From Minisyncoccia bacterium (GTDB lineage Bacteria; Patescibacteriota; Minisyncoccia; Phycocordibacterales; UBA918): DNA of 64,000 nucleotides. Position 1 is the stretch's first letter. Each line of letters begins with the position of its first letter. The stretch covers positions 59,275 to 123,274 of the forward strand of contig CAXRCZ010000007.1 in NCBI GenBank assembly GCA_964229335.1, written 5' to 3'. The translations under genes were made by a program, and so were the position numbers. Under the pieces are notes generated by a model. It saw nothing but the letters and a program-made list of their open reading frames with translations. It searched no databases and had not been told where the DNA came from. Positions 1 to 23,284 of the stretch are shown in pieces.

Positions 1-988
1 GGTCACCGGGAGTAGGGGTGAAAATATCACCCGACTCGCAGTTGTGTCCTACCACAATGTATTCTTTAGTTTCATCATCATTATTTATCACCTCGATTTT
101 ATGTTGAGCGCCGTACATAGCTGTACGCAAAAAATCATTCATACCAGTATTGATTCGCAGAAAAGTGAAGCCGTCGGCTCCAGTATCGACAATATCGTCG
201 ACAGTTGCTACCAAGGTGCCGGCATGCGCAATCAGGTACGTACCAGGTTCAATTTCAAGCCGTAACTCTCTGCCAGTTTCAGCTGCAAAGTTCTCTAACT
301 TGCTAGAAAAGAGCTCCATTATTACCGACATATCAGCCTCTTTCTCAGTATCATATCGATGCACTTTGAAACCACCTCCGATATCGAGCGCGATGACATC
401 GGGTAATTGCGTGGCAATCGAAAGCGACCGATCCATCACCTCTCCCCACACTTTGGGATCTGAACCTGACCCAACATGGATATGTAGGCGATCAATGATC
501 ACATCATTTTCTTTGGCTAGTGCTAGAGCTTCGGGAATATATTCGTACCAAAGTCCAAACGCTGAGGTTGCTCCCCCGGTACTGGTGCGCTTGTTATGCC
601 CCACCCCCATATCAATATTAATCCGTATCCCAACAGTATCAGGATGATTGGCGGCGGCAATAAAATCTCTCAGTTGTCGCATCGAGGTGGCCACATAGAG
701 CACTCCTTGCTCAAGTAATTCAGCAAGATTAGGAGTTGACTGCTGTGAAGATAGCGAAATCTTATTACCCTCGATACCCATTTCTAATAACTCATCTGCT
801 TCATAACTTGAACTGGCATCAAACTCAACACCTGCAGTATCAATGAGTTTTATTATTTCTGGATGTGGATTGGCTTTAACGGCGTAGCGAGTCGTCAAGC
901 CAAATGGAGCTTCTAGACTAGTTAGTTCTTGTAGTCGTCGCTGTATTATTAATCGACTGTATTCGTAACGCGGAAGTGCTGTAGACAT
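1..988 (-). CDS. PLP-dependent group IV decarboxylase (Orn/DAP/Arg decarboxylase family); mirrored copy of 7181-8311, C-terminus cut by the window start
   Basis: ATG at 986-988 (reverse strand). Sequence is identical to the first 988 nt of 7181-8311. Confidence 0.8.
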   Translation of the reverse strand, partial: MSTALPRYEYSRLIIQRRLQELTSLEAPFGLTTRYAVKANPHPEIIKLIDTAGVEFDASSSYEADELLEMGIEGNKISLSSQQSTPNLAELLEQGVLYVATSMRQLRDFIAAANHPDTVGIRINIDMGVGHNKRTSTGGATSAFGLWYEYIPEALALAKENDVIIDRLHIHVGSGSDPKVWGEVMDRSLSIATQLPDVIALDIGGGFKVHRYDTEKEADMSVIMELFSSKLENFAAETGRELRLEIEPGTYLIAHAGTLVATVDDIVDTGADGFTFLRINTGMNDFLRTAMYGAQHKIEVINNDDETKEYIVVGHNCESGDIFTPTPGD

Positions 989-1014
989 TACTCGTAAATT
1001 ATCAAACTTAAATA

Positions 1015-1587
1015 TTAGACACGAATAAACTCGTCAACTTCTGGGAGCGGCATAATTTCTTTACCATTCTTTACCTTACCTTCCTCAAACGGAAATACAC
1101 TTATACTTCCATCTAATTCTAGATAGGCATATTCGACCTCTCCAATATTTCTCACTCCATTCTTTCTTAGTTCGGATTCTAGTTCAGCTTCAGTAAAGTT
1201 TTCAGTTTCCAACGCATGCTGAATTATTTGCCCATTTTTTACTAACAAATTTGGCCTACTATTAATAAATTTTTCGAAAGGTGACCACTTGAGTTTTAAT
1301 CTCGAAGTACCAAACTGCAACGTAATCACTGTCATAATAATTAGTGCTGCATAAATTATTGCTACAGATGGATAAAACATTACATCTCCCACCGCTGAAC
1401 CGAGCGCTACAATTAGTAACATCTCAACTGGAGTCATTTGTTTACGCGCTTTTTTTCCTCCTGCTCTCAGAAACACTAAGGCAAAGATATAAATAACCAG
1501 AACTCTAAAAGTAATTTCTAACAAGAATACCCATTCACTTTCACCAAAAATTGTTTGTGTTAGATCAAATGTAACTACCGGATCCAT
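1015..1587 (-). CDS. DUF421 (YetF-like) membrane protein
   Basis: 190-aa ORF with N-terminal TM helices and a C-terminal soluble domain typical of DUF421. Twin of 6582-7154. Confidence 0.7.
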   Translation of the reverse strand: MDPVVTFDLTQTIFGESEWVFLLEITFRVLVIYIFALVFLRAGGKKARKQMTPVEMLLIVALGSAVGDVMFYPSVAIIYAALIIMTVITLQFGTSRLKLKWSPFEKFINSRPNLLVKNGQIIQHALETENFTEAELESELRKNGVRNIGEVEYAYLELDGSISVFPFEEGKVKNGKEIMPLPEVDEFIRV

Positions 1588-1629
1588 GAAATTTTCTAAT
1601 TAATACGTGTAACGATTACTACAATATGT

Positions 1630-2238
1630 ATGTATAGTATCTTATTTTTCTTTTTTTCGCTTACGATAGCTGCGTCTGGTTTTTTAAAATGGTATGGTTT
1701 CTTAATGGATTGGATCTATCAGTCATATTCAGATGTGCCACAAATACTGTTCTCAGTAATAGTATTTACTTCGATAGTAGTACTTTATACAAGAATCGTT
1801 GGTCTTCGAAGTTTTTCTAAAATGTCTAGCTTTGATTTTGCCATCACAGTAGCGTTTGGTTCTATACTAGCTTCTGTGGTAATCGCAAAAGAACCTAAGA
1901 TATTCCAAGCTGCAGTAGCTATGGGTGGTTTATATTTGTTTCAATACGTACTGTCATTTATAAAAGTGAGGAATAAATGGTTTGCTACCTTGATTGATAA
2001 TGAACCGATTTTACTAATGAATAATCAAGGTTTTTTAGAAGACAATTTAAAAAAAGCCCGAGTTACTAAAGATGAAGTCAGAGATAAACTACGCAAAGCT
2101 AACGTGCTTCAACTCTCAGAAGTAAGGGCTGTAGTTTTTGAAACTACTGGTGATATTTCTGTATTACACAGTACATCCGACAGAAAAATAGATAGTGAAA
2201 TTACAGCCAACGTAAGAGATAAACATTTAATTCAATAA
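1630..2238 (+). CDS. DUF421 (YetF-like) membrane protein, paralog
   Basis: 202-aa ORF with the same architecture. Twin of 5931-6539. Confidence 0.7.
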   Translation: MYSILFFFFSLTIAASGFLKWYGFLMDWIYQSYSDVPQILFSVIVFTSIVVLYTRIVGLRSFSKMSSFDFAITVAFGSILASVVIAKEPKIFQAAVAMGGLYLFQYVLSFIKVRNKWFATLIDNEPILLMNNQGFLEDNLKKARVTKDEVRDKLRKANVLQLSEVRAVVFETTGDISVLHSTSDRKIDSEITANVRDKHLIQ

Positions 2239-2272
2239 CTAGCCGTCTGGGACAATGTTGGAACTTTTTTAG

Positions 2273-2800
2273 CTAAGAAATCGGCTTAATTTCTACTCCA
2301 CTATCTTTATACTCCCGGTATTCTTCCTTGGTTTCTCTCGAATCTACTGACTTACAATAAAACACTTCGTCACCAAAAGAAGACGGTACATCCCACAGCT
2401 TATGTTTAATAACAGCTCCCCACATCCACTTAGAGAGAACGATGTCATCAGATTTCATTATTCCCCCATGAGTAATATTTTCTCCTCCGTCTTTATAGAA
2501 CACCAGATCTCCAGGTTCTGGATTATTTGTTGCTACAAGAATATTCTTACTAAATAGATGTTTTATAAATTCTTGCTGTACAGGATTGTTTCCTCCAAGG
2601 AACTCTGGATCTTGCTCAAGTCCAAAAGCGAATACGAAACAATTATAGTTTATTAAGTATGCTGGTGGTGGGGCTACTATTGTTAACTCCAAAGGAAGAC
2701 GAGATCGAATATATGCTTCAAATTCATCCGGTACCCACCACTTTCTTCCTTCTTCCTCTTCAATTAGTTCTGTGAGTTCCTCTCTGTCTTTTTTGTTCAT
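2273..2800 (-). CDS. Hypothetical protein, possible papain-like Cys/His hydrolase
   Basis: 175-aa ORF with NCFVFAFG and ITHGG motifs. Twin of 5369-5896. Function not recognised. Confidence 0.55.
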   Translation of the reverse strand: MNKKDREELTELIEEEEGRKWWVPDEFEAYIRSRLPLELTIVAPPPAYLINYNCFVFAFGLEQDPEFLGGNNPVQQEFIKHLFSKNILVATNNPEPGDLVFYKDGGENITHGGIMKSDDIVLSKWMWGAVIKHKLWDVPSSFGDEVFYCKSVDSRETKEEYREYKDSGVEIKPIS

Positions 2801-3101
2801 ATGAAGAGTATACCTTGATCAAGAAGTCGAACTAAATATAGCTGAAATATCGGTGCTAGCCGTCTGGGACAATGTTGGAACTTTTCTGGGGTTATGATAA
2901 CTTACTCACAGGAGGACACCATGCACGAACAATCAAGCTCTTACGCAATGTGTTAACAGATTCTCAACCATCCTCGGTTCAAGGACTCGGACGCTCATGA
3001 GCGTTCATCTCTCTACAATAAATTGTCAGGGATGACATTTTCTGAACTCGCTGAAGAGCGAAAGAAAATTGGTCTACTGACTTATGAAGATTAATTTGCG
3101 T

Positions 3102-3129
3102 CACCTCTTTAACAGGAGGTGGCTTTTTT
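3102..3129 (+). terminator. Rho-independent terminator-like hairpin (mirror copy at 5040-5067 on the minus strand)
   Basis: Stem cacctc / gaggtg with an 8-nt loop, followed by gctttttt. Confidence 0.5.
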
Positions 3130-3161
3130 ACGAGCTACCGGACAGGGACGATGTTGGAACT

Positions 3162-3641
3162 TTATTGGCCAGCCGCTTCTAGAGCAGCAAGTGCATATCG
3201 TTGAGTTTCTGGTCGCATTCTCTCATCTTTTTCTAACAAATCATCTAGGTCTACTCTGGTGCACCATCTGTATTCTGTATCCATACTGTCTTCTTCTTGT
3301 GGATTGATTTCTCTAGAATCAGACCGTGCTGCAAATACTAAAGAGGAGTGGTCGTGTACCTCGTTTATTTTATGACGATTCATAAACAATGGTGGGACAA
3401 GGTCTTTATTTGTTTCAGTATCTGTTTGAGTCCAATTTTTAGGACCAATCAAAGTAACTTTTAGACCTGATTCTTCCCAAGCTTCTCGTACCGCAGCTTC
3501 GTTTGCATCTTCGCCGGGATCAATATGCCCTCCTGGCGTACCCCAATAGTTGTACTTTTCATGCAACCTCAGTAGTACAGCATCTCCATTTACTATGAAG
3601 GTATCTACGCAGAGGTCTAGGTAGTAATTTATATGTGCCAT
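3162..3641 (-). CDS. NUDIX hydrolase
   Basis: Nudix box GGHIDPGEDANEAAVREAWEESGL. Twin of 4528-5007. Confidence 0.85.
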   Translation of the reverse strand: MAHINYYLDLCVDTFIVNGDAVLLRLHEKYNYWGTPGGHIDPGEDANEAAVREAWEESGLKVTLIGPKNWTQTDTETNKDLVPPLFMNRHKINEVHDHSSLVFAARSDSREINPQEEDSMDTEYRWCTRVDLDDLLEKDERMRPETQRYALAALEAAGQ

Positions 3642-3833
3642 ACATGAAAGTATAGCAAATTACTGGACAGGGACTCGGTCAGGAGTCGATTATTTTCATG
3701 AATGAAAATATATCGCTCACGACCCTGGCTCGAAACTCCAGTCCCCCAGACTGGTTTTCTCCGCCTTTCTCGTCCCAGTGCTCGGTATCCATAACGATAA
3801 ATTGCGATAGCAAATGCTATCGCAGTTTAATCG

Positions 3834-3907
3834 TGGCTACCGGACAGGGACTCGAACCCCGATCGCTTGGACCAAAACCAAGTGTCCTACCATTAGACGA
3901 TCCGGTA
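3834..3907 (-). tRNA. tRNA-Gln(TTG), mirror copy
   Basis: Exact reverse complement of 4262-4335. Confidence 0.9.
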
Positions 3908-4261
3908 AAATATTTCATTACCAACGATTTACTAACGGGAGGACGCGCAGTGTCCATACTGTCGAGCTAAGTGAGGGTCTAAAGAAAATATGTTTTCTTT
4001 AGACCGAACGTGCGCTGACAGCAAGCTTTGCTTACCATTAGACGATCCGGTAATTTTGTAAAATATAGGTACGTACTTTGGTACGTACCAAAGTACGTAC
4101 CTATATTTTACAAAATTACCGGATCGTCTAATGGTAAGCAAAGCTTGCTGTCAGCGCACGTTCGGTCTAAAGAAAACATATTTTCTTTAGACCCTCACTT
4201 AGCTCGACAGTATGGACACTGCGCGTCCTCCCGTTAGTAAATCGTTGGTAATGAAATATTT

Positions 4262-4335
4262 TACCGGATCGTCTAATGGTAGGACACTTGGTTTTGGTCC
4301 AAGCGATCGGGGTTCGAGTCCCTGTCCGGTAGCCA
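4262..4335 (+). tRNA. tRNA-Gln(TTG) with encoded CCA
   Basis: Acceptor taccgga/tccggta (U1-A72). Anticodon arm cttgg-ttTTGgt-ccaag. T arm cgggg-ttcgagt-ccctg. Discriminator g followed by cca. Confidence 0.9.
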
Positions 4336-4491
4336 CGATTAAACTGCGATAGCATTTGCTATCGCAATTTATCGTTATGGATACCGAGCACTGGGACGAG
4401 AAAGGCGGAGAAAACCAGTCTGGGGGACTGGAGTTTCGAGCCAGGGTCGTGAGCGATATATTTTCATTCATGAAAATAATCGACTCCTGAC

Positions 4492-4508
4492 CGAGTCCCT
4501 GTCCAGTA
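4492..4508 (+). repeat. R1: near-exact copy of the tRNA-Gln 3' end (mirror at 3661-3677)
   Basis: cgagtccctgtccAgta matches tRNA positions 4315-4331 cgagtccctgtccGgta at 16/17, 177 nt downstream. Confidence 0.85.
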
Positions 4509-4527
4509 ATTTGCTATACTTTCATGT

Positions 4528-5007
4528 ATGGCACATATAAATTACTACCTAGACCTCTGCGTAGATACCTTCATAGTAAATGGAGATGCTGTACTACTGA
4601 GGTTGCATGAAAAGTACAACTATTGGGGTACGCCAGGAGGGCATATTGATCCCGGCGAAGATGCAAACGAAGCTGCGGTACGAGAAGCTTGGGAAGAATC
4701 AGGTCTAAAAGTTACTTTGATTGGTCCTAAAAATTGGACTCAAACAGATACTGAAACAAATAAAGACCTTGTCCCACCATTGTTTATGAATCGTCATAAA
4801 ATAAACGAGGTACACGACCACTCCTCTTTAGTATTTGCAGCACGGTCTGATTCTAGAGAAATCAATCCACAAGAAGAAGACAGTATGGATACAGAATACA
4901 GATGGTGCACCAGAGTAGACCTAGATGATTTGTTAGAAAAAGATGAGAGAATGCGACCAGAAACTCAACGATATGCACTTGCTGCTCTAGAAGCGGCTGG
5001 CCAATAA
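4528..5007 (+). CDS. NUDIX hydrolase
   Basis: 159-aa ORF with a Nudix box. Confidence 0.85.
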   Translation: MAHINYYLDLCVDTFIVNGDAVLLRLHEKYNYWGTPGGHIDPGEDANEAAVREAWEESGLKVTLIGPKNWTQTDTETNKDLVPPLFMNRHKINEVHDHSSLVFAARSDSREINPQEEDSMDTEYRWCTRVDLDDLLEKDERMRPETQRYALAALEAAGQ

Positions 5008-5035
5008 AGTTCCAACATCGTCCCTGTCCGGTAGC
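5007..5035 (+). repeat. R2: att-like repeat aaagttccaacatcgtccctgtccggtagc (mirror at 3134-3162)
   Basis: The last 15 nt, tccctgtccggtagc, are identical to the tRNA-Gln 3' end. The first 14 nt are shared with R3 and R4. Confidence 0.85.
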
Positions 5036-5284
5036 TCGTAAAAAAGCCACCTCCTGTTAAAGAGGTGACGCAAATTAATCTTCATAAGTCAGTAGACCAA
5101 TTTTCTTTCGCTCTTCAGCGAGTTCAGAAAATGTCATCCCTGACAATTTATTGTAGAGAGATGAACGCTCATGAGCGTCCGAGTCCTTGAACCGAGGATG
5201 GTTGAGAATCTGTTAACACATTGCGTAAGAGCTTGATTGTTCGTGCATGGTGTCCTCCTGTGAGTAAGTTATCATAACCCCAGA

Positions 5285-5314
5285 AAAGTTCCAACATTGT
5301 CCCAGACGGCTAGC
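5285..5314 (+). repeat. R3: att-like repeat aaagttccaacattgtcccagacggctagc (mirror at 2855-2884)
   Basis: Direct repeat of R4, and shares 11/15 of its 3' part with R2. Confidence 0.85.
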
Positions 5315-5368
5315 ACCGATATTTCAGCTATATTTAGTTCGACTTCTTGATCAAGGTATACTCTTCAT

Positions 5369-5896
5369 ATGAACAAAAAAGACAGAGAGGAACTCACAGA
5401 ACTAATTGAAGAGGAAGAAGGAAGAAAGTGGTGGGTACCGGATGAATTTGAAGCATATATTCGATCTCGTCTTCCTTTGGAGTTAACAATAGTAGCCCCA
5501 CCACCAGCATACTTAATAAACTATAATTGTTTCGTATTCGCTTTTGGACTTGAGCAAGATCCAGAGTTCCTTGGAGGAAACAATCCTGTACAGCAAGAAT
5601 TTATAAAACATCTATTTAGTAAGAATATTCTTGTAGCAACAAATAATCCAGAACCTGGAGATCTGGTGTTCTATAAAGACGGAGGAGAAAATATTACTCA
5701 TGGGGGAATAATGAAATCTGATGACATCGTTCTCTCTAAGTGGATGTGGGGAGCTGTTATTAAACATAAGCTGTGGGATGTACCGTCTTCTTTTGGTGAC
5801 GAAGTGTTTTATTGTAAGTCAGTAGATTCGAGAGAAACCAAGGAAGAATACCGGGAGTATAAAGATAGTGGAGTAGAAATTAAGCCGATTTCTTAG
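5369..5896 (+). CDS. Hypothetical protein, possible papain-like Cys/His hydrolase
   Basis: 175-aa ORF flanked by R3 and R4. Confidence 0.55.
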   Translation: MNKKDREELTELIEEEEGRKWWVPDEFEAYIRSRLPLELTIVAPPPAYLINYNCFVFAFGLEQDPEFLGGNNPVQQEFIKHLFSKNILVATNNPEPGDLVFYKDGGENITHGGIMKSDDIVLSKWMWGAVIKHKLWDVPSSFGDEVFYCKSVDSRETKEEYREYKDSGVEIKPIS

Positions 5897-5901
5897 CTAA
5901 A

Positions 5902-5930
5902 AAAGTTCCAACATTGTCCCAGACGGCTAG
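5902..5930 (+). repeat. R4: att-like repeat aaagttccaacattgtcccagacggctag (mirror at 2239-2267)
   Basis: Identical to R3 over 29 nt. Confidence 0.85.
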
Positions 5931-6539
5931 TTATTGAATTAAATGTTTATCTCTTACGTTGGCTGTAATTTCACTATCTATTTTTCTGTCGGATGTACTG
6001 TGTAATACAGAAATATCACCAGTAGTTTCAAAAACTACAGCCCTTACTTCTGAGAGTTGAAGCACGTTAGCTTTGCGTAGTTTATCTCTGACTTCATCTT
6101 TAGTAACTCGGGCTTTTTTTAAATTGTCTTCTAAAAAACCTTGATTATTCATTAGTAAAATCGGTTCATTATCAATCAAGGTAGCAAACCATTTATTCCT
6201 CACTTTTATAAATGACAGTACGTATTGAAACAAATATAAACCACCCATAGCTACTGCAGCTTGGAATATCTTAGGTTCTTTTGCGATTACCACAGAAGCT
6301 AGTATAGAACCAAACGCTACTGTGATGGCAAAATCAAAGCTAGACATTTTAGAAAAACTTCGAAGACCAACGATTCTTGTATAAAGTACTACTATCGAAG
6401 TAAATACTATTACTGAGAACAGTATTTGTGGCACATCTGAATATGACTGATAGATCCAATCCATTAAGAAACCATACCATTTTAAAAAACCAGACGCAGC
6501 TATCGTAAGCGAAAAAAAGAAAAATAAGATACTATACAT
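5931..6539 (-). CDS. DUF421 (YetF-like) membrane protein
   Basis: 202-aa ORF. Confidence 0.7.
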   Translation of the reverse strand: MYSILFFFFSLTIAASGFLKWYGFLMDWIYQSYSDVPQILFSVIVFTSIVVLYTRIVGLRSFSKMSSFDFAITVAFGSILASVVIAKEPKIFQAAVAMGGLYLFQYVLSFIKVRNKWFATLIDNEPILLMNNQGFLEDNLKKARVTKDEVRDKLRKANVLQLSEVRAVVFETTGDISVLHSTSDRKIDSEITANVRDKHLIQ

Positions 6540-6581
6540 ACATATTGTAGTAATCGTTACACGTATTAATTAGAAAATTTC

Positions 6582-7154
6582 ATGGATCCGGTAGTTACAT
6601 TTGATCTAACACAAACAATTTTTGGTGAAAGTGAATGGGTATTCTTGTTAGAAATTACTTTTAGAGTTCTGGTTATTTATATCTTTGCCTTAGTGTTTCT
6701 GAGAGCAGGAGGAAAAAAAGCGCGTAAACAAATGACTCCAGTTGAGATGTTACTAATTGTAGCGCTCGGTTCAGCGGTGGGAGATGTAATGTTTTATCCA
6801 TCTGTAGCAATAATTTATGCAGCACTAATTATTATGACAGTGATTACGTTGCAGTTTGGTACTTCGAGATTAAAACTCAAGTGGTCACCTTTCGAAAAAT
6901 TTATTAATAGTAGGCCAAATTTGTTAGTAAAAAATGGGCAAATAATTCAGCATGCGTTGGAAACTGAAAACTTTACTGAAGCTGAACTAGAATCCGAACT
7001 AAGAAAGAATGGAGTGAGAAATATTGGAGAGGTCGAATATGCCTATCTAGAATTAGATGGAAGTATAAGTGTATTTCCGTTTGAGGAAGGTAAGGTAAAG
7101 AATGGTAAAGAAATTATGCCGCTCCCAGAAGTTGACGAGTTTATTCGTGTCTAA
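6582..7154 (+). CDS. DUF421 (YetF-like) membrane protein
   Basis: 190-aa ORF. Confidence 0.7.
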   Translation: MDPVVTFDLTQTIFGESEWVFLLEITFRVLVIYIFALVFLRAGGKKARKQMTPVEMLLIVALGSAVGDVMFYPSVAIIYAALIIMTVITLQFGTSRLKLKWSPFEKFINSRPNLLVKNGQIIQHALETENFTEAELESELRKNGVRNIGEVEYAYLELDGSISVFPFEEGKVKNGKEIMPLPEVDEFIRV

Positions 7155-7180
7155 TATTTAAGTTTGATAATTTACGAGTA

Positions 7181-8311
7181 ATGTCTACAGCACTTCCGCG
7201 TTACGAATACAGTCGATTAATAATACAGCGACGACTACAAGAACTAACTAGTCTAGAAGCTCCATTTGGCTTGACGACTCGCTACGCCGTTAAAGCCAAT
7301 CCACATCCAGAAATAATAAAACTCATTGATACTGCAGGTGTTGAGTTTGATGCCAGTTCAAGTTATGAAGCAGATGAGTTATTAGAAATGGGTATCGAGG
7401 GTAATAAGATTTCGCTATCTTCACAGCAGTCAACTCCTAATCTTGCTGAATTACTTGAGCAAGGAGTGCTCTATGTGGCCACCTCGATGCGACAACTGAG
7501 AGATTTTATTGCCGCCGCCAATCATCCTGATACTGTTGGGATACGGATTAATATTGATATGGGGGTGGGGCATAACAAGCGCACCAGTACCGGGGGAGCA
7601 ACCTCAGCGTTTGGACTTTGGTACGAATATATTCCCGAAGCTCTAGCACTAGCCAAAGAAAATGATGTGATCATTGATCGCCTACATATCCATGTTGGGT
7701 CAGGTTCAGATCCCAAAGTGTGGGGAGAGGTGATGGATCGGTCGCTTTCGATTGCCACGCAATTACCCGATGTCATCGCGCTCGATATCGGAGGTGGTTT
7801 CAAAGTGCATCGATATGATACTGAGAAAGAGGCTGATATGTCGGTAATAATGGAGCTCTTTTCTAGCAAGTTAGAGAACTTTGCAGCTGAAACTGGCAGA
7901 GAGTTACGGCTTGAAATTGAACCTGGTACGTACCTGATTGCGCATGCCGGCACCTTGGTAGCAACTGTCGACGATATTGTCGATACTGGAGCCGACGGCT
8001 TCACTTTTCTGCGAATCAATACTGGTATGAATGATTTTTTGCGTACAGCTATGTACGGCGCTCAACATAAAATCGAGGTGATAAATAATGATGATGAAAC
8101 TAAAGAATACATTGTGGTAGGACACAACTGCGAGTCGGGTGATATTTTCACCCCTACTCCCGGTGACCCAGAAGAAATCGAACCGAGAATGTTAAATAAA
8201 GCAGAGATTGGCGACGAGATACGTATTTATGATGTTGGTGCGTATGGCGCAAGTATGCGAGCCAAGGGCTACAACTCGTTTCCAGACGCTGTTGAGGTGA
8301 TAGTCGATTAG
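7181..8311 (+). CDS. PLP-dependent group IV decarboxylase (LysA / Orn / Arg / carboxynorspermidine decarboxylase family)
   Basis: Motifs YAVKANP (PLP lysine), HIHVGSGS, DIGGGF, EPGTYL, GHNCESGD, GAYGASM. Confidence 0.8.
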   Translation: MSTALPRYEYSRLIIQRRLQELTSLEAPFGLTTRYAVKANPHPEIIKLIDTAGVEFDASSSYEADELLEMGIEGNKISLSSQQSTPNLAELLEQGVLYVATSMRQLRDFIAAANHPDTVGIRINIDMGVGHNKRTSTGGATSAFGLWYEYIPEALALAKENDVIIDRLHIHVGSGSDPKVWGEVMDRSLSIATQLPDVIALDIGGGFKVHRYDTEKEADMSVIMELFSSKLENFAAETGRELRLEIEPGTYLIAHAGTLVATVDDIVDTGADGFTFLRINTGMNDFLRTAMYGAQHKIEVINNDDETKEYIVVGHNCESGDIFTPTPGDPEEIEPRMLNKAEIGDEIRIYDVGAYGASMRAKGYNSFPDAVEVIVD

Positions 8312-8344
8312 ATATATTGTACTATAATAGGTATTATAGGTAGT

Positions 8345-8611
8345 ATGAAAAAAAGTCATTATATTGCTGGAATCTTGCTTGGCTTACTCACTCCAGTTGC
8401 CGGAATATTTATTGGATTACAAATCTCTACGACATTCGGAACAATTTTAGCCTGGCCGCTGGTGCTGATGAGTTTCTTGACCGGGATTCCATTTGGTATG
8501 TGGTCACCACTGCTGTGGTTGGTGGCGATGATTCTCTCGGTTATTGTGTGGACGCTAGTGGTGTATGCTCTTAGTCAACTTGGTAAAACACGTGCCAAAG
8601 ACAAGTCTTAG
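8345..8611 (+). CDS. Small membrane protein (hypothetical)
   Basis: 88-aa ORF with 3 hydrophobic helices, followed by hairpin acgcctaccaggcgt and a T-run. Confidence 0.5.
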   Translation: MKKSHYIAGILLGLLTPVAGIFIGLQISTTFGTILAWPLVLMSFLTGIPFGMWSPLLWLVAMILSVIVWTLVVYALSQLGKTRAKDKS

Positions 8612-8686
8612 TAATTGACCAAATAGACTTTTACGCGTACTCTTCAGACATCAACCACGCCTACCAGGCGTATTTATTTTTTACTT

Positions 8687-10477
8687 ATGCAACAATCAGA
8701 AATTCGCAATATCGCTATTATCGCTCACGTAGACCACGGTAAAACTACACTTACCGATGGTTTGATGGAGTTTACTGGTGCCAGAGAAGGGGATGCGTCG
8801 ATGGACAACAACGCGTTAGAGCAAGAACGAGGTATTACCATCTATGCCAAAAACACTTCTGTTGACTATAAAGATACAAAAATCAACATTATTGATACAC
8901 CCGGCCACGCGGACTTTGGGTCTGAGGTTGAGCGTATTTTGCGTAGTATTGACTGCGTTTTGCTGGTGGTAGACGCGCAGGAAGGGCCAATGCCGCAAAC
9001 TAGATTTGTATTAAAAAAATCTCTTGAACTCGGACACAAACCGATTGTGATTATCAACAAGATTGATAAGCCAGCAGCCAATCCTGATCAGTGCGAAGAG
9101 CAGGTACTAGAACTCTTCTGGGAGCTTGGCGCCAGCGATGAACAAAGCGAATTCCCAGTAGTGTACGCTGTCGGTAGAGACAAGGTGGCTAAGCGAAATC
9201 TGACTGACGAAATGACAGACCTCTCTCCAGTACTCGATACAATTCTCGAACATGTTCCAGCCGCCAAAGGATATACCGAAAACGACCCACTCCGAGCTCA
9301 AGTATTCAACCTCGGGTACGATAACTTTTTAGGACGACTAGCGGTAGCGAGAATTTACGAGGGTAAGGTGAGTAAAGGTCAATCAGTGATTGTAAAGCAT
9401 AAAGGCGAGGAGTCCTACAAAGGAAAAATCGTCAAACTATCTGGCTACAAAGGAGTGCAACAAGTAGAGGTTGAAGAAGCGTTTGCTGGCGATATCGTTT
9501 TGATAGCGGGGCTCGAAAAAATAAATATCGGTGACACTATTACCGATACTGATGAAGCAGAACCACTACCAGCAATTGAGGTTGATGAACCAACCGTAAG
9601 TATGACCTTCTTAGTCAACTCTTCGCCTTTTGCTGGAAGAGAAGGTAAGTATGTTACTAGTCGACAGATTGGTGAGCGGTTAGAAAAGGAGTTAGAAATC
9701 AATGTTGGTTTGCAAGTAGAGCAGGCAACAGGTGACGCGTATGTCGTAAAAGGTCGGGGTGAAATGCACATTGCAATTTTGCTTGAAAATATGCGGCGTG
9801 AGGGATATGAACTGTCAGTTTCTCAACCAAAAGTTATTTTCCGGGAAGAGAATGGTCAGACTCTTGAGCCATTTGAAGAAGCGATTATTGATATCCCGAG
9901 CGAATACCAAGGATCAGTGATTGAACGTCTTAGCAATCGTGGTTTTATTATGCAAAACATGGTTCCGCATGAGAACCAAGTTCGACTTATATTCGAAGGT
10001 CCTACCCGCGGTCTATTGGGATATAAAAACCAATTTATTATTGATACGAAAGGAGAGGGAATTCTATCTTCACGGTTCATTGAATTCCGTCCACATGCCG
10101 GAGAAATCAAAAAACGCCAAGTTGGCTCAATGACATCGATGACTACAGGAAAAGCTCTCGGCTTTGCATTGGCTGGTTTGCAGGACCGTGGCGAGCTCTA
10201 TATTGGCGCGGGTACCGAAGTGTATGAAGGGATGGTTATCGGCAACACCAACAAAGGTGAAGAAATGGCGGTAAACCCGACTAAAGGCAAACAGCTCACC
10301 AACATGCGTGCCTCAGGTAGTGACGACAACGTTTCACTTACTCCGCACCGACCACTGAAGATTGAGACAGGTTTGGAAATTATGCAGGAAGATGAGTATC
10401 TAGAAGTCTGTCCAGAAAGTATTCGCTTGCGTAAGCAACTACTCAAAGAAAACGAACGATCACGCCTGCGCCGCTAG
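8687..10477 (+). CDS. typA: Translational GTPase TypA/BipA
   Basis: [17 protein letters not shown] and DTPGHADF motifs. Length 596 aa with an EF-G-like domain order. Confidence 0.9.
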
Positions 10478-11721
10478 TTAGTGGCCGGAATAAACGTTAG
10501 AGCCTTTCCGCGCTCTTTACCTCGACCAGTTCGTCCAATACGGTGTACGTAGTCCTCGAAAGTATTAGGTAGGTCGTAGTTGATGACGTGACTAACACTG
10601 TCGACATGGATTCCACGAGCAGCTACATCGGTAGCTACTAGTACTTTGGCTTGACCACTCTTAAAGCGCTTGAGAGCACGCTGTCTCTGACTATGACTTT
10701 TGTTACCGTGGATTGATTCGGCAGTGATTCCGTTTTGGTTAATCTGGGAGCCGATTCTTTCCACTTGGTGTTTCATTGCGCCAAAGATAATTACTCTGCG
10801 CAGCTCGTCTTTTTTCAAAAGCTCAAGCAAAGTATCAAACTTTTGATCACCGATATACGACACAACATCTTGTTCGATGCTGTCAGTCACGGCCTTTTTC
10901 TTTACCGAGACAGTCACAGGATTGTCCATAAAATCCTTTATCAGACCAGCGGTCTTATCATCCATAGTGGCGGAGAAGAAAAGAGTCTGTCGTTTGGGTG
11001 GAAGTAAATCCAAGATATAGCGCATATCATGAATAAATCCCATATCCAACATACGATCAGCTTCATCAAGTATTACTGAATCAATAGTCTTTAGCGGCAT
11101 CAACCGACGATCTATTAAATCTTTGACTCTGCCTGGCGTACCAATAATGAATTGATTTTTTCGCTTAAGACCACGGATTTGCGGCGCAATACTGGTACCA
11201 CCGACGCATACTGTTGAGTACATCGGGAAACCTTTGCTGAGTAATCTAAGCTCATTTTCAATTTGGATTGCTAATTCTCGAGTCGGAGTGAGAATGAGAG
11301 TAGTTTTTTGATTGTCTGATAGCTTGCGTTCAATCATAGGAATCAGAAACGCAGCTGTTTTTCCAGTACCAGTTTCGGCTAGACCCACCACGTCCTTTCC
11401 TTGCAAGATTTCTGGTATTACTTGGTCTTGAATAGGGGTTGGATCAATTAATCCCATTGTTTTGATGGCTTTTTTCAGAGTTGCGGTAAGGGGTAGGGCA
11501 GAAAATTGTGATTTTGGTACGTATACTTCCTCTGCTACCTCTACAGGATTGCGGTTGATAAACTGAGTCGGGTCAAAAGACGGCATTTGACGGCGTTTTG
11601 AGGTTCGGGTCCGAGTACGAGAAGAAGAGCTCGAGTAACGTCTTCGATTGTTTTGGCTAGCATTATTTTTACGACGTCGAAATTGGCTACCGCCACTTCG
11701 ACGGGGTCGAGTGTTTGTCAT
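10474..11721 (-). CDS. DEAD-box ATP-dependent RNA helicase with a basic N-terminal tail
   Basis: Q motif PTPIQ, plus AETGTGKT, DEAD, SAT and HRIGRTGR. Confidence 0.9.
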   Translation of the reverse strand: MTNTRPRRSGGSQFRRRKNNASQNNRRRYSSSSSRTRTRTSKRRQMPSFDPTQFINRNPVEVAEEVYVPKSQFSALPLTATLKKAIKTMGLIDPTPIQDQVIPEILQGKDVVGLAETGTGKTAAFLIPMIERKLSDNQKTTLILTPTRELAIQIENELRLLSKGFPMYSTVCVGGTSIAPQIRGLKRKNQFIIGTPGRVKDLIDRRLMPLKTIDSVILDEADRMLDMGFIHDMRYILDLLPPKRQTLFFSATMDDKTAGLIKDFMDNPVTVSVKKKAVTDSIEQDVVSYIGDQKFDTLLELLKKDELRRVIIFGAMKHQVERIGSQINQNGITAESIHGNKSHSQRQRALKRFKSGQAKVLVATDVAARGIHVDSVSHVINYDLPNTFEDYVHRIGRTGRGKERGKALTFIPATN

Positions 11722-11935
11722 ATTAGTGAGTATGGTGATTTATACACCAAAGGTGTAAGGGCGGTGCAGGTAATAAATGGAGAAACTAAACAGTATCTGC
11801 AGCTTGAGAGCCCTACACAGATTTCAAAAGCGTCTGTACTCTAACACATTTAAATAATATGTAAATATCAGCTAATCACAGTTTGCTGCAAAAGCTGACA
11901 GCTGCTGAACGGTAGGTAGGGTATGATGAAATAGT

Positions 11936-12133
11936 ATGAGACAACAGCTTCTCTACAGTGAAAACGAATACGCTCGTGTGAAATGGTATCTCGTCAATAG
12001 TGGCAAGGAAGGTACTATCGAAGATATCATGCGGGTCACTCGTCATGGATATCTGAAAGCTGGTCAGATACAGGAACAGTTGCATCGTGAAGGCATTCTC
12101 GACCTCAACGAAATTAGGGAATTTGATGAGTAG
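11936..12133 (+). CDS. Small hypothetical protein
   Basis: 65-aa ORF in an otherwise empty intergenic region, with a weak RBS. Confidence 0.3.
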   Translation: MRQQLLYSENEYARVKWYLVNSGKEGTIEDIMRVTRHGYLKAGQIQEQLHREGILDLNEIREFDE

Positions 12134-12305
12134 CTTTTTGTTCCGGTGTTTGCTATGCGAAAGTAGTCATTCTTATGTATAAGAAAGCCGTACTAGCTGG
12201 AGGACGCTTTCGTAAGACCTTGCCAGCTACTTTGCAAAGCATGAAGTAAAGTAGCGACAAGGTATACGGCTCCTGTAAGGAGTAAGAGATGCTATATTTC
12301 TATAT

Positions 12306-12794
12306 ATGATAAAAAAAGCTGTAGTGGCGGGAGGATGCTTCTGGGGACTCGAAGACCTCATCCACACCCAAAAAGGAGTGGTTGATACTGAAGTTGGCTA
12401 TACAGGCGGAACAAATACCAATCCGACCTACCAAAATCACCCCGGCCACGCTGAGGCAGTAGAGATTACATATAATCCTGAAGAACTCTCTTACAAGGAG
12501 TTGTTAGATTTTTTCTTTCAAATTCATAATCCCACCACATTAAATCAGCAAGGTAATGATAAAGGTACTTCTTACCGTTCAGCCATTTTTTACCAAAACC
12601 AAGAAGAAAAGGCTATAGCTCAAGAAATGATTGCTATTGTAAACCAGTCTGAACGCTGGTCCGATCCAGTTGTTACTAGCCTTGAGCCCTTCACGGCATT
12701 TTATCCAGCTGAGGACTATCACCAAGACTATTTGATAAAAAATCCAGGTGGCTATACCTGCCACGCCATTTATTTTGATAGCTATTTGAAATAA
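12306..12794 (+). CDS. msrA: Peptide-methionine (S)-S-oxide reductase
   Basis: GGCFWG active-site motif and HDPT-like NPTTLNQQG region. Confidence 0.9.
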
Positions 12795-12862
12795 CTTATT
12801 TTGTCTCGCTACTCATGTAGTGTAGAATTAGCAGGTAACTAACCAATAATTTACCTATTACT

Positions 12863-13654
12863 ATGAATCCTTCTGATAATTCAGACCAAAAAGAAACCAC
12901 TACCACAGCTACTGAACCAGTAGCTACTCCAGTTGAGTCCGGTACCAAAAAACCGGCTTGGATGTATTATGCTATAGCGGCGATTGTACTAATTATCCTA
13001 GCGTTGGGGTTGTTGTATGTGATGGAAAAGCAAGGTAAAACCGACACCGGCCTATTTGATTCAATTTTGACCATGCAGTCACAGCAAGTCACTGTCGCAT
13101 TGGTTAATGGACAAAGTATTTCTCAATATGAGTTAGACACTAGTATCGAACAGTTGTCTGCCGGAGCTGCTTCACAGGGAATTGATCAAAATGATCCTCA
13201 AGTGCAACAAGGTCTTCGCGATCAAGCGCTTGAAGTCTTGATTAACACAGAGTTGCTTCGACAAGAAGCTGAACGTCGAGGAGTGACAGTTACAGATGAA
13301 GAGGTGCAAGCACGCTTAGACGCACTAGTACAACAGGTTGGTGGCGAAGAAGTTTTGGCTGAAAGAATGGAAGAGTTCGGAGTGAGTATGGAGACCTTGG
13401 AGTCAGATATTCGCAGTGAGCTCGCTATCCAAAAAGTACTCGACGCAGTCTTTGCTGAAAGAGAAATCACAGTAACTGAAGAAGAAATAAATGAGTACTA
13501 CACAGCCGCTGGTGGAGAAGAAGCTGGCCTACCTCCACTTCAGGAAGTGCGGGACCAAGTTGAACTAGAAGTTCAAAATACCAAACAACAAGAAATCATA
13601 AACGAACTCATCACTGAATTACGCGCCTCAGCCACTATCGAAATAATTGAATAG
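12863..13654 (+). CDS. Membrane-anchored SurA-N/PrsA-like chaperone domain protein
   Basis: Single N-terminal TM helix followed by a helical, Glu/Gln-rich region resembling the SurA N-terminal domain. Weak assignment. Confidence 0.4.
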   Translation: MNPSDNSDQKETTTTATEPVATPVESGTKKPAWMYYAIAAIVLIILALGLLYVMEKQGKTDTGLFDSILTMQSQQVTVALVNGQSISQYELDTSIEQLSAGAASQGIDQNDPQVQQGLRDQALEVLINTELLRQEAERRGVTVTDEEVQARLDALVQQVGGEEVLAERMEEFGVSMETLESDIRSELAIQKVLDAVFAEREITVTEEEINEYYTAAGGEEAGLPPLQEVRDQVELEVQNTKQQEIINELITELRASATIEIIE

Positions 13655-13722
13655 ATTGCTTTGCACACGTCTAGCGCGTTTTCTTCATATACTCCAATAA
13701 GGACTTGGTATACTTATTGGTA

Positions 13723-14976
13723 ATGTCCGAGTCCCTTCAAGCAATCGCTCACGCTATTACATACCACCCACAGGAACGGATAAAGATGCTGCAGAATCTA
13801 CCGCAGTCTCAGCGCAGCGCGGTATTTGAATTACTCTCACCGTATGTGCAGCAGTCTATCTTGCGACATCTTCATGATCACGAAATAGTCGAATTACTTG
13901 ATAATCTTGACTTACGTCACGCCGAACAAGCTCTGGCTCGTCTGAAGAATGTTAAAAGAAGGGTTCGTATTGTACGAAAATTAAAAGGAGAGGTGAGAGA
14001 AAAAGCCGAATATTTTTTGCGGTTTCATCCACAAGCTACGCTGTCCCTGATTAATTTCGATTACTTGTTTGTGTCTGGTGACAAAACACTGGCCCAAGCG
14101 GCTGACTTAATTGAGAGTCATTACGAAGAAACAGGAAAGTATCCGGAACTACTGGTGCATGAGCACGGCGATTTGATTGGGGAGGTGACGTTTGCGACGT
14201 TAGTGCGAGAAAGAAATAATGCTAAGTTAAAAAATTTTGTACATCCGATAAGTACTATTTCTTATCAAACCGAACCGGCCAAAATCGTCGATCATTTGGT
14301 CACCACTAAAAATAAAAAGGTAGTGGTACAAGACCACGACAACAGCATTATCGGCATCATATACGCTGATACGATGAAGTCACTATTTGGAGAATTACCA
14401 GCTGAAGCACTCTATGATTTCGCTGGAGTTGATGATAGCGAGCGACCGTTTGATTCAGTGGGTAAAAAAGTCTCACACCGCTATCGGTGGTTGATACTCA
14501 ACTTACTAACTGCTTTTGGGGCCGGGGCAGTAGTTTTGCTGTTCCAAGATACGCTCGACACCCTGACCATTTTGTCAGTGTACATTCCAATTATGGCTGG
14601 TATGGGCGGTAATGCTGCAACTCAGTCTTTTGCCATTATGGTTCGAGGCTTAACTCTTGGCACGGTGTCATTGCAATCTGCTGGACCAGCTATTGTAAGA
14701 GAGTTTATCGCTGGCGGATTTAATGGTGTGATTATCGGGGCTATAGTCGCCGTTATTTCGTGGTTGTGGAACGGAGAACCATTATTAGGAATAGTAGTAG
14801 GATTAGCTTTGATAATTGCTCATGCTATAGCAGCAGTAGCCGGTGCAATTGTGCCACTACTAATGAAGAATTTGGGGTATGACCCAGCTGCAACATCGAC
14901 TATATTTATCACCACTATCACTGATGTGTGCGGACTCTTATTGTTGTTTGGACTAGCAACGTTAATTCTGTTGTAA
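13723..14976 (+). CDS. mgtE: Magnesium transporter MgtE
   Basis: MgtE N-domain, CBS-like region, and TM domain with GMGGNAATQS. The ATG at 13723 is preferred over the TTG at 13705. Confidence 0.85.
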   Translation: MSESLQAIAHAITYHPQERIKMLQNLPQSQRSAVFELLSPYVQQSILRHLHDHEIVELLDNLDLRHAEQALARLKNVKRRVRIVRKLKGEVREKAEYFLRFHPQATLSLINFDYLFVSGDKTLAQAADLIESHYEETGKYPELLVHEHGDLIGEVTFATLVRERNNAKLKNFVHPISTISYQTEPAKIVDHLVTTKNKKVVVQDHDNSIIGIIYADTMKSLFGELPAEALYDFAGVDDSERPFDSVGKKVSHRYRWLILNLLTAFGAGAVVLLFQDTLDTLTILSVYIPIMAGMGGNAATQSFAIMVRGLTLGTVSLQSAGPAIVREFIAGGFNGVIIGAIVAVISWLWNGEPLLGIVVGLALIIAHAIAAVAGAIVPLLMKNLGYDPAATSTIFITTITDVCGLLLLFGLATLILL

Positions 14977-14999
14977 GGACATAGTGGTATACTAGTGAC

Positions 15000-15557
15000 A
15001 TGAAGATTGCCGAGAGAGTGGTAATGGTAGCTTTGCTCCTAGCTATTTTGGGTGGGGGAGGAGCGCTGTATTACGCAGTCACAAAGGAGAGCGCTGCAGT
15101 ACGCGATGCTGTTGCTCGAGGTGAGTATGAACAACCACTGCCGTCAGAAGAAACGGACACTACCGATCAATCTAACTGGCGGGTTTACTATCCTACTACA
15201 GTTCCAATAGTTATCGGGCCAACTACCGTTGCAGCATCCGTAGCCGATTCGTTACCAGAACGAATAAAAGGCCTCTCTGATACACCATATTTACCTGAGG
15301 GCTTGGTAAAATTATTTGCTTTTGGTGCTGCTGGCAGCCATTCGATATGGATGAAAGACATGCAATACCCACTTGATATCATATGGGTAGACAAAGAAGG
15401 GAGCATTACCCATATAGAAGAAAATATTTCACCAGAGACCTTTCCAGAATCTTTTTCTTCGCCAACACCAGCTTGGTATGTAATTGAAGCGAATGCAGGG
15501 TTTGTGGCAAGTAATAATATTACAAAGACTGACCAAGTAACTATTGTCTTGGAATGA
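15000..15557 (+). CDS. DUF192 domain protein
   Basis: N-terminal TM helix and a PLDIIWVD...ITHI core typical of DUF192/COG1430. Confidence 0.65.
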   Translation: MKIAERVVMVALLLAILGGGGALYYAVTKESAAVRDAVARGEYEQPLPSEETDTTDQSNWRVYYPTTVPIVIGPTTVAASVADSLPERIKGLSDTPYLPEGLVKLFAFGAAGSHSIWMKDMQYPLDIIWVDKEGSITHIEENISPETFPESFSSPTPAWYVIEANAGFVASNNITKTDQVTIVLE

Positions 15558-15623
15558 TGATGTTATCCCATATTGTGCCGAAGGGTATGTTTTTGCTAAA
15601 AACTTGCATAATAGTATAAAACG

Positions 15624-16029
15624 TTGCATACTATGCAGGCACGATGGTCGCCTAAGCTAGTAAATTGTGAACCACAATTGGATAGTTTGGGAGGAAAGTC
15701 CGAACACGCACTAGATTATCTAGTAGCCGGGTAGCGGGTAACACCCGTCATTTAGTCTTTGACTAAAAGAGGTGCGAGCAGAGACGTCACAATCGAAAGA
15801 AAGTGAGTTCCTTCGGGAATAGCTCTATAAGAAATTATAGAGGTGAAACGGCTAAATCCTTACCTGCGTGCAAGGCCGTGCTTTTGTCTCATGGCAAAAG
15901 AGAGCCGCATGAAATATCGAGTAATTGATATTCAAGATATATGACCATCCTAGCCTCACTTTTTGTGTGTGTTTAGACACTAAATACGTACAAAAAGTGA
16001 GGCTACGACAGAATTCGGCTTATGTGCAA
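15624..16029 (+). ncRNA. rnpB: RNase P RNA (bacterial type A)
   Basis: GGAGGAAAGTCCG (CR-I) at about 15692. ACAGAATTCGGCTTAT (CR-V) at about 16008. Terminal pairing ttgca/tgcaa. Terminator at 16033-16055. Contains a long extra hairpin at about 15950-16005. Confidence 0.85.
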
Positions 16030-16112
16030 AAAAGCAGCTCGCAAGAGCTGCTTTTACTATATGATAGACTGAGTCTATAGGAGGCAACAATAGTGTTTTA
16101 AATAATTTTTAT

Positions 16113-18626: not shown

Positions 18627-18634
18627 GAAGCGGT

Positions 18635-20311: not shown

Positions 20312-20372
20312 TAATTTTTATATTCTCAGGTAGAGTAAAGCCACTGTCATCGGCTAGGATGTCACTCTTGTT

Positions 20373-22157: not shown

Positions 22158-22159
22158 AT

Positions 22160-22279
22160 TTACACCGCTCCTACACCACCAGAATAGGCAAAAATCATGC
22201 TGATTGCGATAATGGCTGCAAACACAATCCAAACCCACTTCACCGCTTTCTTGCCACGTTTATGAAATAGTATACTCAT
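22160..22279 (-). CDS. Very small membrane protein (hypothetical)
   Basis: 39 aa, MSILFHKRGKKAVKWVWIVFAAIIAISMIF..., a basic stretch followed by one TM helix. Confidence 0.3.
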   Translation of the reverse strand: MSILFHKRGKKAVKWVWIVFAAIIAISMIFAYSGGVGAV

Positions 22280-22382
22280 ACGCTCTATTCTACCTGAAGA
22301 TACTAATAATTTTAAGGGTTGATGGTAGTATAGTAGTGGTGTGTCTTTCCACACAGATTTATGTCTGCGAAAGATTATATTG

Positions 22383-22438
22383 GCCGCTCGTTACAGCCAT
22401 AATCTCCCTTGATAGGTCGATTCTGGCTAAACGCCGGC
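22383..22438 (+). repeat. 56-nt three-stem hairpin motif, copy 1 (candidate structured RNA leader)
   Basis: gccg-ct-cgt-tac-agcca-[24 nt with GTCGATTC]-tggct-aa-acg-c-cggc. Lies 43 nt upstream of the ftsB-like start. Confidence 0.6.
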
Positions 22439-22481
22439 ATAAATTCGCAATATTCGTGTTATCACACTCATTTGCTCATTC

Positions 22482-22865
22482 ATGTTTGATTTTTACCAAA
22501 AACGGAAAATCAGAGCTGTTCTAACTTCTGTCTATACCAGAATATTTTTGCTGATACTGGCCGTTCTGGTGGCTATGAGTGCCTATACGAGGTACAACAT
22601 TGCTGATCAAATGTCAGACCGCAGAGCTGAAGCTGAACGAGAAGTAGAGGAACTACAAACCCGCAAGGTAGAACTAGAAGAAAAAGTAAAATACCTCAAA
22701 GATGACCGCGGAATGGAGGCGGAAATGAGAAGACAGTTTGATGTGGCCCTACCTGAAGAAGAAGTAGTGGTGATAGTAGACGCTGAAAATGACCAGGGAG
22801 CAAATGTAATACTGCCCCTAGAGGCTCAAACCGAAGAGAGAAAATGGTACGAATTCTGGCGATAA
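22482..22865 (+). CDS. FtsB/DivIC-like septum formation initiator
   Basis: One TM helix followed by a coiled coil (EAEREVEELQTRKVELEEKVKYLK). Confidence 0.6.
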   Translation: MFDFYQKRKIRAVLTSVYTRIFLLILAVLVAMSAYTRYNIADQMSDRRAEAEREVEELQTRKVELEEKVKYLKDDRGMEAEMRRQFDVALPEEEVVVIVDAENDQGANVILPLEAQTEERKWYEFWR

Positions 22866-22927
22866 GTCGCTTACGGCGTCTCGGTAAATTTGGTATACTA
22901 TAGCAGTTAAGATATAAACTCATATTT

Positions 22928-23161: not shown

Positions 23162-23178
23162 TTTATAGAGATAATAAA

Positions 23179-23217: not shown

Positions 23218-23284
23218 GTTACAGTGAAAAATAAGAGAAAACACCCACCGAAGCGGATGAGTCTCCCGCTTGCGCGTAGGTGTT

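Follow-up and report, generated by a model that had tools for sequence, protein, structure and literature searches.

A perfect 8,168-nt palindrome at the start of a Patescibacteria chromosomal sequence is very probably a fold-back artefact

How does a stretch of bacterial chromosome come to begin with its own mirror image? The DNA analysed here, 64,000 nucleotides long and referred to as the window, opens with a left arm (1–4084) that is the exact reverse complement of a right arm (4085–8168). Direct comparison of the bases gave 4,084 matches in 4,084 positions, with 0 mismatches and 0 spacer. Extended outward from the axis, which lies between 4084 and 4085 (axis region 4060–4109), the match continues for 4084 nt and is halted solely by reaching base 1. 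A repeat search, separate from the base comparison, returned an inverted repeat with the same arms, 1–4084 and 4085–8168, 100% complementary and with 0 nt between them. The perfect, spacer-less palindrome that the first-pass annotation had reported at 1–8168 is thereby borne out. The left arm stops where the window starts, so that the arms measure at least 4,084 nt; cut in this way by the window start, it has no outer junction in the window and no join to unique sequence. From the right arm the sequence runs on without a break into the remainder of the window. The source contig is given as 126,716 bp in a protein index, an even number that would permit an axis at 63,358 if the whole contig were a palindrome.

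What do the arms contain? Closest to the axis, at a distance of 177 nt, is the native copy of a tRNA-Gln(ttg) gene at 4262–4335 (+), detected by ARAGORN and by the Rfam tRNA model (59.1 bits). Its mirror copy, detected by the same two means, lies at 3834–3907 (−). Nothing except tRNAs reached the gathering threshold in the Rfam scan. Further out in the right arm are a NUDIX hydrolase gene at 4528–5007 (+; Pfam PF00293, E = 1.2e-17; mirror 3162–3641, −), an ORF of 175 aa at 5369–5896 (+; mirror 2273–2800, −) with a weak match to DUF7689 (PF24738, E = 2.2e-5), and two genes assigned by Pfam to the DUF421/YetF family, the first, for a membrane protein, at 5931–6539 (−; mirror 1630–2238, +) and the second at 6582–7154 (+; mirror 1015–1587, −). 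The arm boundary, 8168/8169, falls inside a gene for a PLP-dependent decarboxylase of the diaminopimelate type at 7181–8311 (+; PF02784 and PF00278), at a point marked by no sequence feature. Homologues of this enzyme are named diaminopimelate decarboxylase in their source records. This is its sole full-length copy; the mirror at 1–988 (−) comprises the first 329 codons and is cut by the window start. With the decarboxylase homologue of a relative (L017) as the query, tblastn found matches at both 7154–8308 and 1015–2. For each ORF of the left arm there is an identical counterpart at 8169−x, as the annotation had stated with two quoted pairs as examples, and the mirror coordinates confirm its list of items present twice: the tRNA-Gln, the NUDIX gene, the 175-aa ORF, both DUF421 genes and most of the decarboxylase. 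It had also placed the stop of the left arm inside the decarboxylase, at the sequence end; the truncated copy at 1–988 agrees, the end in question being that of the window.

Which of the two arms belongs to the organism? An independent assembly, of run SRR28144605, bears on this question. In this Logan assembly, contig L001 (SRR28144605_66696) matches 4445–11064 with 100% identity and passes unbroken across 8168/8169. In this k=31 assembly there is no graph vertex at 8168, the path from 4445 to 11064 is unbranched, and a further contig (L084) carries the sequence on over 11038–15138. There is no alternative junction out to at least 11 kb. Since L001 passes unbranched through 8168/8169 at 100% identity, the right arm, 4085–8168, is on this sequence evidence judged to be the native chromosomal copy. 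Near the axis, Logan coverage starts at 4445, where L001 starts. When ORFs of 90, 69 (axis-spanning) and 62 aa, of a kind rarely called as genes, were used to look for Logan sequence further left than 4445, none was found.

The window encodes BipA, LepA, MurJ, ValRS, FtsZ, FtsA, GyrA and IF2, all of them core genes, and represents the core of the chromosome in an uncultured member of the Patescibacteria/Paceibacterota. For comparison we used 80 decarboxylase loci from GTDB genomes. Among these the tRNA-Gln(ttg) upstream of the decarboxylase is kept in L017 only; P0007 and P0010, the nearest relatives by decarboxylase, lack this synteny. In L017, a single distant relative, the tRNA-Gln–decarboxylase locus is internal to a 93-kb contig and is preceded by pyrG-ftsX-ftsE-prfB. 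None of pyrG, ftsX, ftsE and prfB was found within the 64-kb window. Because this flank is absent, the left neighbourhood expected from L017 is missing here and a mirror image stands in its stead. No palindrome was found upstream of the tRNA-Gln of L017. A search for the present organism's own pyrG with the L017 PyrG as query was abandoned: the best 120 matches were all 79–90% identical, and the orthologue was indistinguishable among them.

Why should the sequence turn back at 4084/4085? The surroundings of the axis are non-coding, with the tRNA-Gln starting 177 nt downstream, and three GTAC motifs fall within the opening 17 nt of the right arm, the densest cluster in the approximately 60 kb of non-duplicated sequence (4085–64000). 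These repeats, GGTACGTACC, alternate purine with pyrimidine and are followed by TTTT. Read across the axis, the layout is AAAA plus a 21-nt GTAC-rich stem, then the mirror of the stem, then TTTT. The position of the axis is non-random: it is intergenic, near a tRNA-Gln, dense in GTAC and terminator-like. In exact-pattern scans the axis-proximal sequence gave 0 matches in JGI metagenomes and 0 in IMG/VR. A filled-in Acc65I end (GGTAC|GTACC) was considered as the origin of the axis and was dropped as implausible for a metagenome library.

Two other sites in the window are built in the same manner. At 23176–23215 and 58845–58884, A4, a stem, the mirror stem and T4 form perfect, spacer-less palindromes that are bidirectional hairpin terminators of this genome, and their layout recurs in the 25 nt with which the right arm begins. 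These terminators, however, total 40 nt and have unique sequence on both sides, whereas the palindrome at the start of the window measures 8,168 nt. They represent the upper limit in the window, where the largest other spacer-less palindromes are of 40 nt (arms 20 nt); in 1.22 Mb from the 80 related loci the largest are of 40–44 nt (arms 20–22 nt). A chance palindrome is not at issue, since natural examples reach just 40–44 nt and that of 8,168 nt exceeds even the longest natural spacer-less palindromes of the lineage about 200-fold, taking the window and the 1.22 Mb of relatives together. It is plausible that the sequence beside the axis is half of a terminator-type palindrome that served as the turning point of a fold-back. 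The natural extent of the axis palindrome is inseparable from its mirror image by sequence alone, its left half being mirrored by construction.

We conclude that the 8,168-nt palindrome is very probably a fold-back artefact of sequencing or assembly and not a structure of the chromosome, and that the left arm is most likely an artefactual copy. The first-pass annotation had ranked such an artefact highest, and the perfection and size of the palindrome, the native right arm and the site of the axis support that ranking. Its variant in which the fold-back passes through a genuine short palindrome fits as well, a short terminator-like element adjoining the axis. The left arm, 1–4084, would then lie outside the genome of the organism, a mirror of the native 4085–8168 made by a turn from one strand to the other at 4084/4085. 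The true chromosome most likely runs left from about 4085 into different sequence; going by the gene order of one relative, this could be the side of pyrG. The contig probably broke at about 4085, in non-coding DNA just upstream of the tRNA-Gln and beside an apparent half of a hairpin terminator; a short natural palindrome would be the expected place for a fold-back to arise.

By what route might the strand have turned? Three may be envisaged: (a) an inverted self-loop at a dead end of a de Bruijn graph, through which SPAdes or MEGAHIT would push, so that the last edge is doubled; (b) a chimera formed by snap-back or template switching in the course of amplification or library preparation; and (c) a long read that passes from one strand into its complement. 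We infer that one of these produced the palindrome, and that the left arm would be found to be without read support.

Artefacts of this class are documented. In the lonely inverted loop of Rahman & Medvedev (2022; PMC9528984) the last k-mer of a dead-end edge is self-complementary in its suffix, and the sequence spelled is that edge followed by its reverse complement. The contig then ends in a perfect palindrome with no spacer; the palindrome at 1–8168 is likewise perfect and spacer-less. Such loops, or palindromic unitigs, in de Bruijn graphs are spelled in full by SPAdes and MEGAHIT (PMC9528984). The loop requires a palindrome of about k−1 nt in the reads, whether natural or from a chimeric read, and the axis palindrome would have to reach that length. 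Fold-back reads of Nanopore and PacBio (Heinz, Meyerson & Li 2026; PMC12870357), typically 1–4% of reads, have equal arms of kilobase size, as have the palindromic chimeras of MDA (Pacasus, 10.1101/173872; PMC13265396) and the palindrome of the window. Small offsets or deletions are frequent at the junction of amplification chimeras, whereas the junction here is exact. Fold-back or palindromic chimeric reads can lengthen a contig end (PMC12870357; 10.1101/173872; PMC13265396; 10.1101/2023.06.06.543983), and single-cell assemblies contain palindromic contigs (10.1101/2023.06.06.543983).

Could the duplication nevertheless be real, present in the cells or in a subpopulation of them, as the first-pass annotation had listed among its alternatives? 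It would have arisen by fold-back priming where a double-strand break had occurred at a short natural palindrome or close to one, with its outer left junction beyond the window. Inverted duplications are reported to form in vivo by fold-back priming where short inverted repeats are present (PMC10622511). Short palindromic GTAC motifs do adjoin the axis, and the end of the left arm does lie outside the data shown. We nevertheless consider this origin improbable. When bacterial DNA replicates, long palindromes without a spacer are known to be highly unstable, and on general knowledge a perfect one of more than 8 kb would be expected to be very unstable in a bacterial chromosome. The arms are 100% identical over their whole length, whereas those of natural palindromes in the lineage measure at most 22 nt. 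The absence of a branch between 4445 and 11064 in the independent assembly means that a real duplication would need arms of more than about 7 kb, with essential genes doubled. Moreover, a place at the end of the sequence is what a fold-back artefact predicts; for a real event it would be a coincidence.

What of a hairpin telomere? The end of a linear replicon, or the head-to-head dimer junction formed during its replication, might have been read round its tip at 4084/4085, in the manner of Borrelia. Known protelomerase target sites have an alternating core, which the GTAC repeats of the axis loosely recall, and the axis is a specific, non-random site. The size of the arms is compatible with a single long read. 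Genuine hairpin telomeres do give perfect terminal inverse duplications, of 5–18 kb, in long-read assemblies, and the Borrelia wrap-around is a terminal inverse duplication of several kilobases with a defined inversion point, likewise seen here (10.1101/2025.07.18.665644). The polarity of the region speaks against a telomere, however. On the strand that leads away from the axis, 4085–24000 has a GC skew of +0.075, and that strand carries 15 of 17 genes. Both replication and transcription thus proceed outward from the supposed telomere, the reverse of the pattern expected where a Borrelia-like chromosome has its origin in the interior. The region belongs to the core chromosome, and in L017, albeit a single distant relative, the homologous tRNA-Gln locus is internal, with housekeeping genes upstream. 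No protelomerase or integrase gene was found within the 64-kb window, and no protelomerase or tyrosine-recombinase domain in any of its ORFs of at least 380 aa; an ORF of 491 aa without a family assignment matched no solved structure. Compared with known phages and plasmids, the arm has no similarity except in the tRNA.

The comparison with Borrelia itself breaks down at several points. There the duplication is present at both ends of the replicon, the telomere motifs are conserved and the genome encodes a telomere resolvase (ResT). Here one end is visible, the window is without a resolvase, the polarity is reversed and a relative has the locus in the interior of a contig. The closed Patescibacteria genomes on record to date are, to our knowledge, all circular. 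A hairpin telomere is thus very improbable. It had been put forward in the first-pass annotation as an alternative, and of that proposal the picture of read-through round a tip does match the palindrome, while the polarity, the synteny with L017 and a window without a protelomerase weaken it. The least probable claim of all is the specific one of a member of the Patescibacteria with a hairpin-ended linear chromosome or replicon, resolved at the GTAC-repeat palindrome by a putative protelomerase.

What follows from these readings is very different. A telomere, if true, would be a significant finding; we know of no earlier linear, hairpin-ended chromosome in Patescibacteria, and it would be the first there. 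If the palindrome is a fold-back artefact, its biological interest is nil, and about 4 kb of a public genome are a false duplication, whose spurious extras are one more tRNA-Gln, a repeat of four genes and a truncated copy of the decarboxylase. Estimates of duplication and contamination would be inflated, analyses of paralogues or inverted repeats could be misled, and a real contig break would be hidden at a tRNA-linked, terminator-like site. As to the genes of the arm themselves, the relatives of the NUDIX hydrolase in metagenomes are 63–79% identical to it and occur in unrelated contexts.

How exact is the palindrome that opens the window? Compared directly, 1–4084 and the reverse complement of 4085–8168 have 0 differing positions, and a repeat finder independently returned the same two arms at 100% complementarity with a 0 nt spacer. 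The perfect, spacer-less palindrome of 8,168 nt claimed by the first-pass annotation is therefore exact. Its accompanying claims hold as well. Every left-arm ORF is matched by an identical one at 8169-x; tRNA-Gln(ttg) is doubled, with copies at 3834–3907 (−) and 4262–4335 (+) called by ARAGORN and Rfam; and the left arm ends within the decarboxylase gene, 1–988 (−) being a truncated mirror of the full copy at 7181–8311. Outward extension from the axis (4084/4085) is halted solely by reaching base 1. Since this ‘sequence end’ is the window end, 4,084 nt is a minimum for the length of the arms. The outer boundary at 8168 carries no sequence feature, and exists solely because the left arm meets base 1.

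In the non-duplicated sequence (4085–64000), the longest perfect spacer-less palindromes are two of 40 nt (20-nt arms), followed by one of 24 nt. Across 80 related decarboxylase loci (1.22 Mb) the maximum arms are 20–22 nt. The 8,168-nt palindrome is thus some 200 times the natural maximum of the lineage. The two 40-nt palindromes, at 23176–23215 and 58845–58884, are related in sequence (AAAATCACCGCGTTAATGCA|TGCATTAACGCGGTGATTTT and AAAATCCCTGCTTTAATACT|AGTATTAAAGCAGGGATTTT), with TTGT directly after each; the second adjoins tRNA-Leu. They are probably bidirectional hairpin terminators.

To what does the right arm belong? Decarboxylase relatives are labelled Paceibacterota, Parcubacteria, Kaiserbacteria or Saccharibacteria, and the closest non-self homologue is just 70% identical. 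The rest of the window carries core-chromosome genes (BipA, DEAD-box helicase, MsrA, MgtE, MurJ, LepA, ValRS, TsaD, FtsZ, FtsA, GyrA, IF2) and scattered tRNAs. Known phages and plasmids resemble the palindrome arm in the tRNA only. The Logan contig L001 (6,620 nt), from an independent assembly of SRR28144605, matches 4445–11064 at 100% identity, and a second, L084, spans 11038–15138. This assembly shows no branching at 8168/8169 nor elsewhere out to 11 kb. We conclude that the right arm runs on into the chromosome without a break. Logan assembles at k = 31. The two contigs overlap by 27 nt only (11038–11064), less than k−1, which suggests coverage gaps and an organism of low abundance in SRR28144605; the start of L001 at 4445 is therefore uninformative about the axis. 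Look-ups of three small ORFs near the axis found no Logan contig adjoining L001 on the left. More data, or long reads, probably lie behind the public contig of 126,716 bp.

The axis falls within a non-coding stretch, 177 nt upstream of tRNA-Gln. The right arm opens with GTACCAAAGTACGTACCTATATTTT; three GTAC motifs within 17 nt give it the highest GTAC density in the ~60 kb of non-duplicated sequence (4085–64000). Of just two GTACGTAC octamers in that sequence, one lies inside this cluster. A T4 run begins 21 nt from the axis; with its mirror the region reads A4 and a 21-nt stem, then a 21-nt stem and T4, the same layout as the AAAATC...GATTTT palindromes at 23176–23215 and 58845–58884. The GTAC cluster, the T4 run and this terminator-like layout indicate that the turning point is not at a random position. 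A short natural hairpin here is plausible from the sequence, its left half being mirrored by construction and its natural extent unreadable.

Nearby, 31 nt from the axis and 147 nt upstream of the genuine gene, 4115–4136 is a 22-nt exact duplicate of the tRNA-Gln 5′ end at 4261–4283 (TTACCGGATCGTCTAATGGTA), with mirror copies in the left arm. Neither ARAGORN nor Rfam calls a tRNA in it; an old rearrangement or integration at this locus may have left it behind as a pseudo-tRNA.

What should lie to the left of the axis? Among the 80 related loci, only L017 (JBGSPE010000007.1) retains tRNA-Gln(ttg) upstream of the decarboxylase. Downstream, L017 and the window share the order decarboxylase, MsrA, DEAD helicase, SurA-like protein, MgtE. 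In L017, where the locus lies in the interior of a 93-kb contig, pyrG, ftsX, ftsE and prfB precede the tRNA. None of these four is present in the window, so that, judged by this one fairly distant relative, a left flank of the expected type is missing and a mirror image stands instead. L017 PyrG is too highly conserved to single out this organism's pyrG as a query. Exact-pattern scans with the axis-side sequence gave no matches in JGI metagenomes or IMG/VR, and the NUDIX relatives in metagenomes are not syntenic.

The native right arm, the scale, the axis site and the missing left flank all support the explanation that the first-pass annotation had ranked first. We conclude, short of proof, that the palindrome is very probably a fold-back artefact and not a real genomic feature. 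Three documented routes fit. A k-mer at a dead end whose suffix is self-complementary would form a lonely inverted loop in the de Bruijn graph; SPAdes and MEGAHIT traverse such loops, outputting the edge and its reverse complement (PMC9528984). A chimera from amplification or library preparation could give a palindromic molecule and hence a palindromic contig, as earlier reports describe (10.1101/2023.06.06.543983; Pacasus, 10.1101/173872; PMC13265396). Or a long read may have passed from template to complement strand, as typically 1–4% of reads do (PMC12870357). Were a short natural hairpin present at the axis, it would promote all three routes and account for the contig break there.

Could the duplication instead have arisen in vivo? 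This is quite unlikely: long spacer-less palindromes are expected to be unstable, the arms are perfectly identical, the independent assembly has no branch out to 11 kb, and the duplication would coincide with a sequence end by chance. A hairpin telomere would give the same picture, since long-read assemblies of Borrelia hairpin telomeres contain inverse duplications of 5–18 kb, at both ends and at conserved motifs (10.1101/2025.07.18.665644). Here, however, GC skew is +0.075 across 4085–24000 and 15 of the 17 genes there point away from the axis; replication and transcription directed away from the putative end are the opposite of what a linear chromosome with an internal origin would show. 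No protelomerase or tyrosine-recombinase domain occurs in window ORFs of at least 380 aa, and ten smaller ORFs checked are housekeeping or without assignment. With the homologous locus internal in L017, these results make a hairpin telomere or dimer junction very unlikely.

Besides the fold-back, the right arm holds copies of the tRNA-Gln 3′ end downstream of the tRNA, at 4490–4508 (CGAGTCCCTGTCCAGTA), 5005–5034 (TCCCTGTCCGGTAGC, within a 30-nt repeat), and 5284–5313 and 5901–5930 (a pair of identical 30-nt copies, more diverged, AAAAGTTCCAACATTGTCCCAGACGGCTAG). These repeats flank the NUDIX gene (4528–5007) and the 175-aa DUF7689-like ORF (5369–5896), and the arrangement resembles a tandem integration of small cassettes at a tRNA gene. 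No integrase lies near the repeats. L017 has different genes in this place; in the locus L093 a NUDIX homologue (540–1004) lies directly downstream of tRNA-Arg, without a repeated tRNA tail.

Elsewhere in the window, the ORF at 55509–56984 (−), 491 aa long, begins with TTG; it has many hydrophobic segments and is apparently membrane-spanning. Alone among the ORFs of at least 380 aa it is unassigned, with neither a Pfam family nor a counterpart among solved structures. Two further ORFs of at least 150 aa overlap it, so its present limits may not define a genuine gene. A 63-nt sequence occurs twice, inverted, 90% identical and 21.9 kb apart: 22380–22442 (+), upstream of a 127-aa coiled-coil ORF (22482–22865), and 44320–44382 (−), upstream of signal peptidase I (43609–44229, minus strand). 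It matches no Rfam family at threshold, and may be a common leader or regulatory RNA. Finally, a 26-nt inverted repeat pair (CTAAGTACTCGCGACCCCAGCTCGCT; 39072–39097 and 59232–59257), 20 kb apart and 96% complementary, has one copy within the tRNA cluster at 58.9–59.7 kb.
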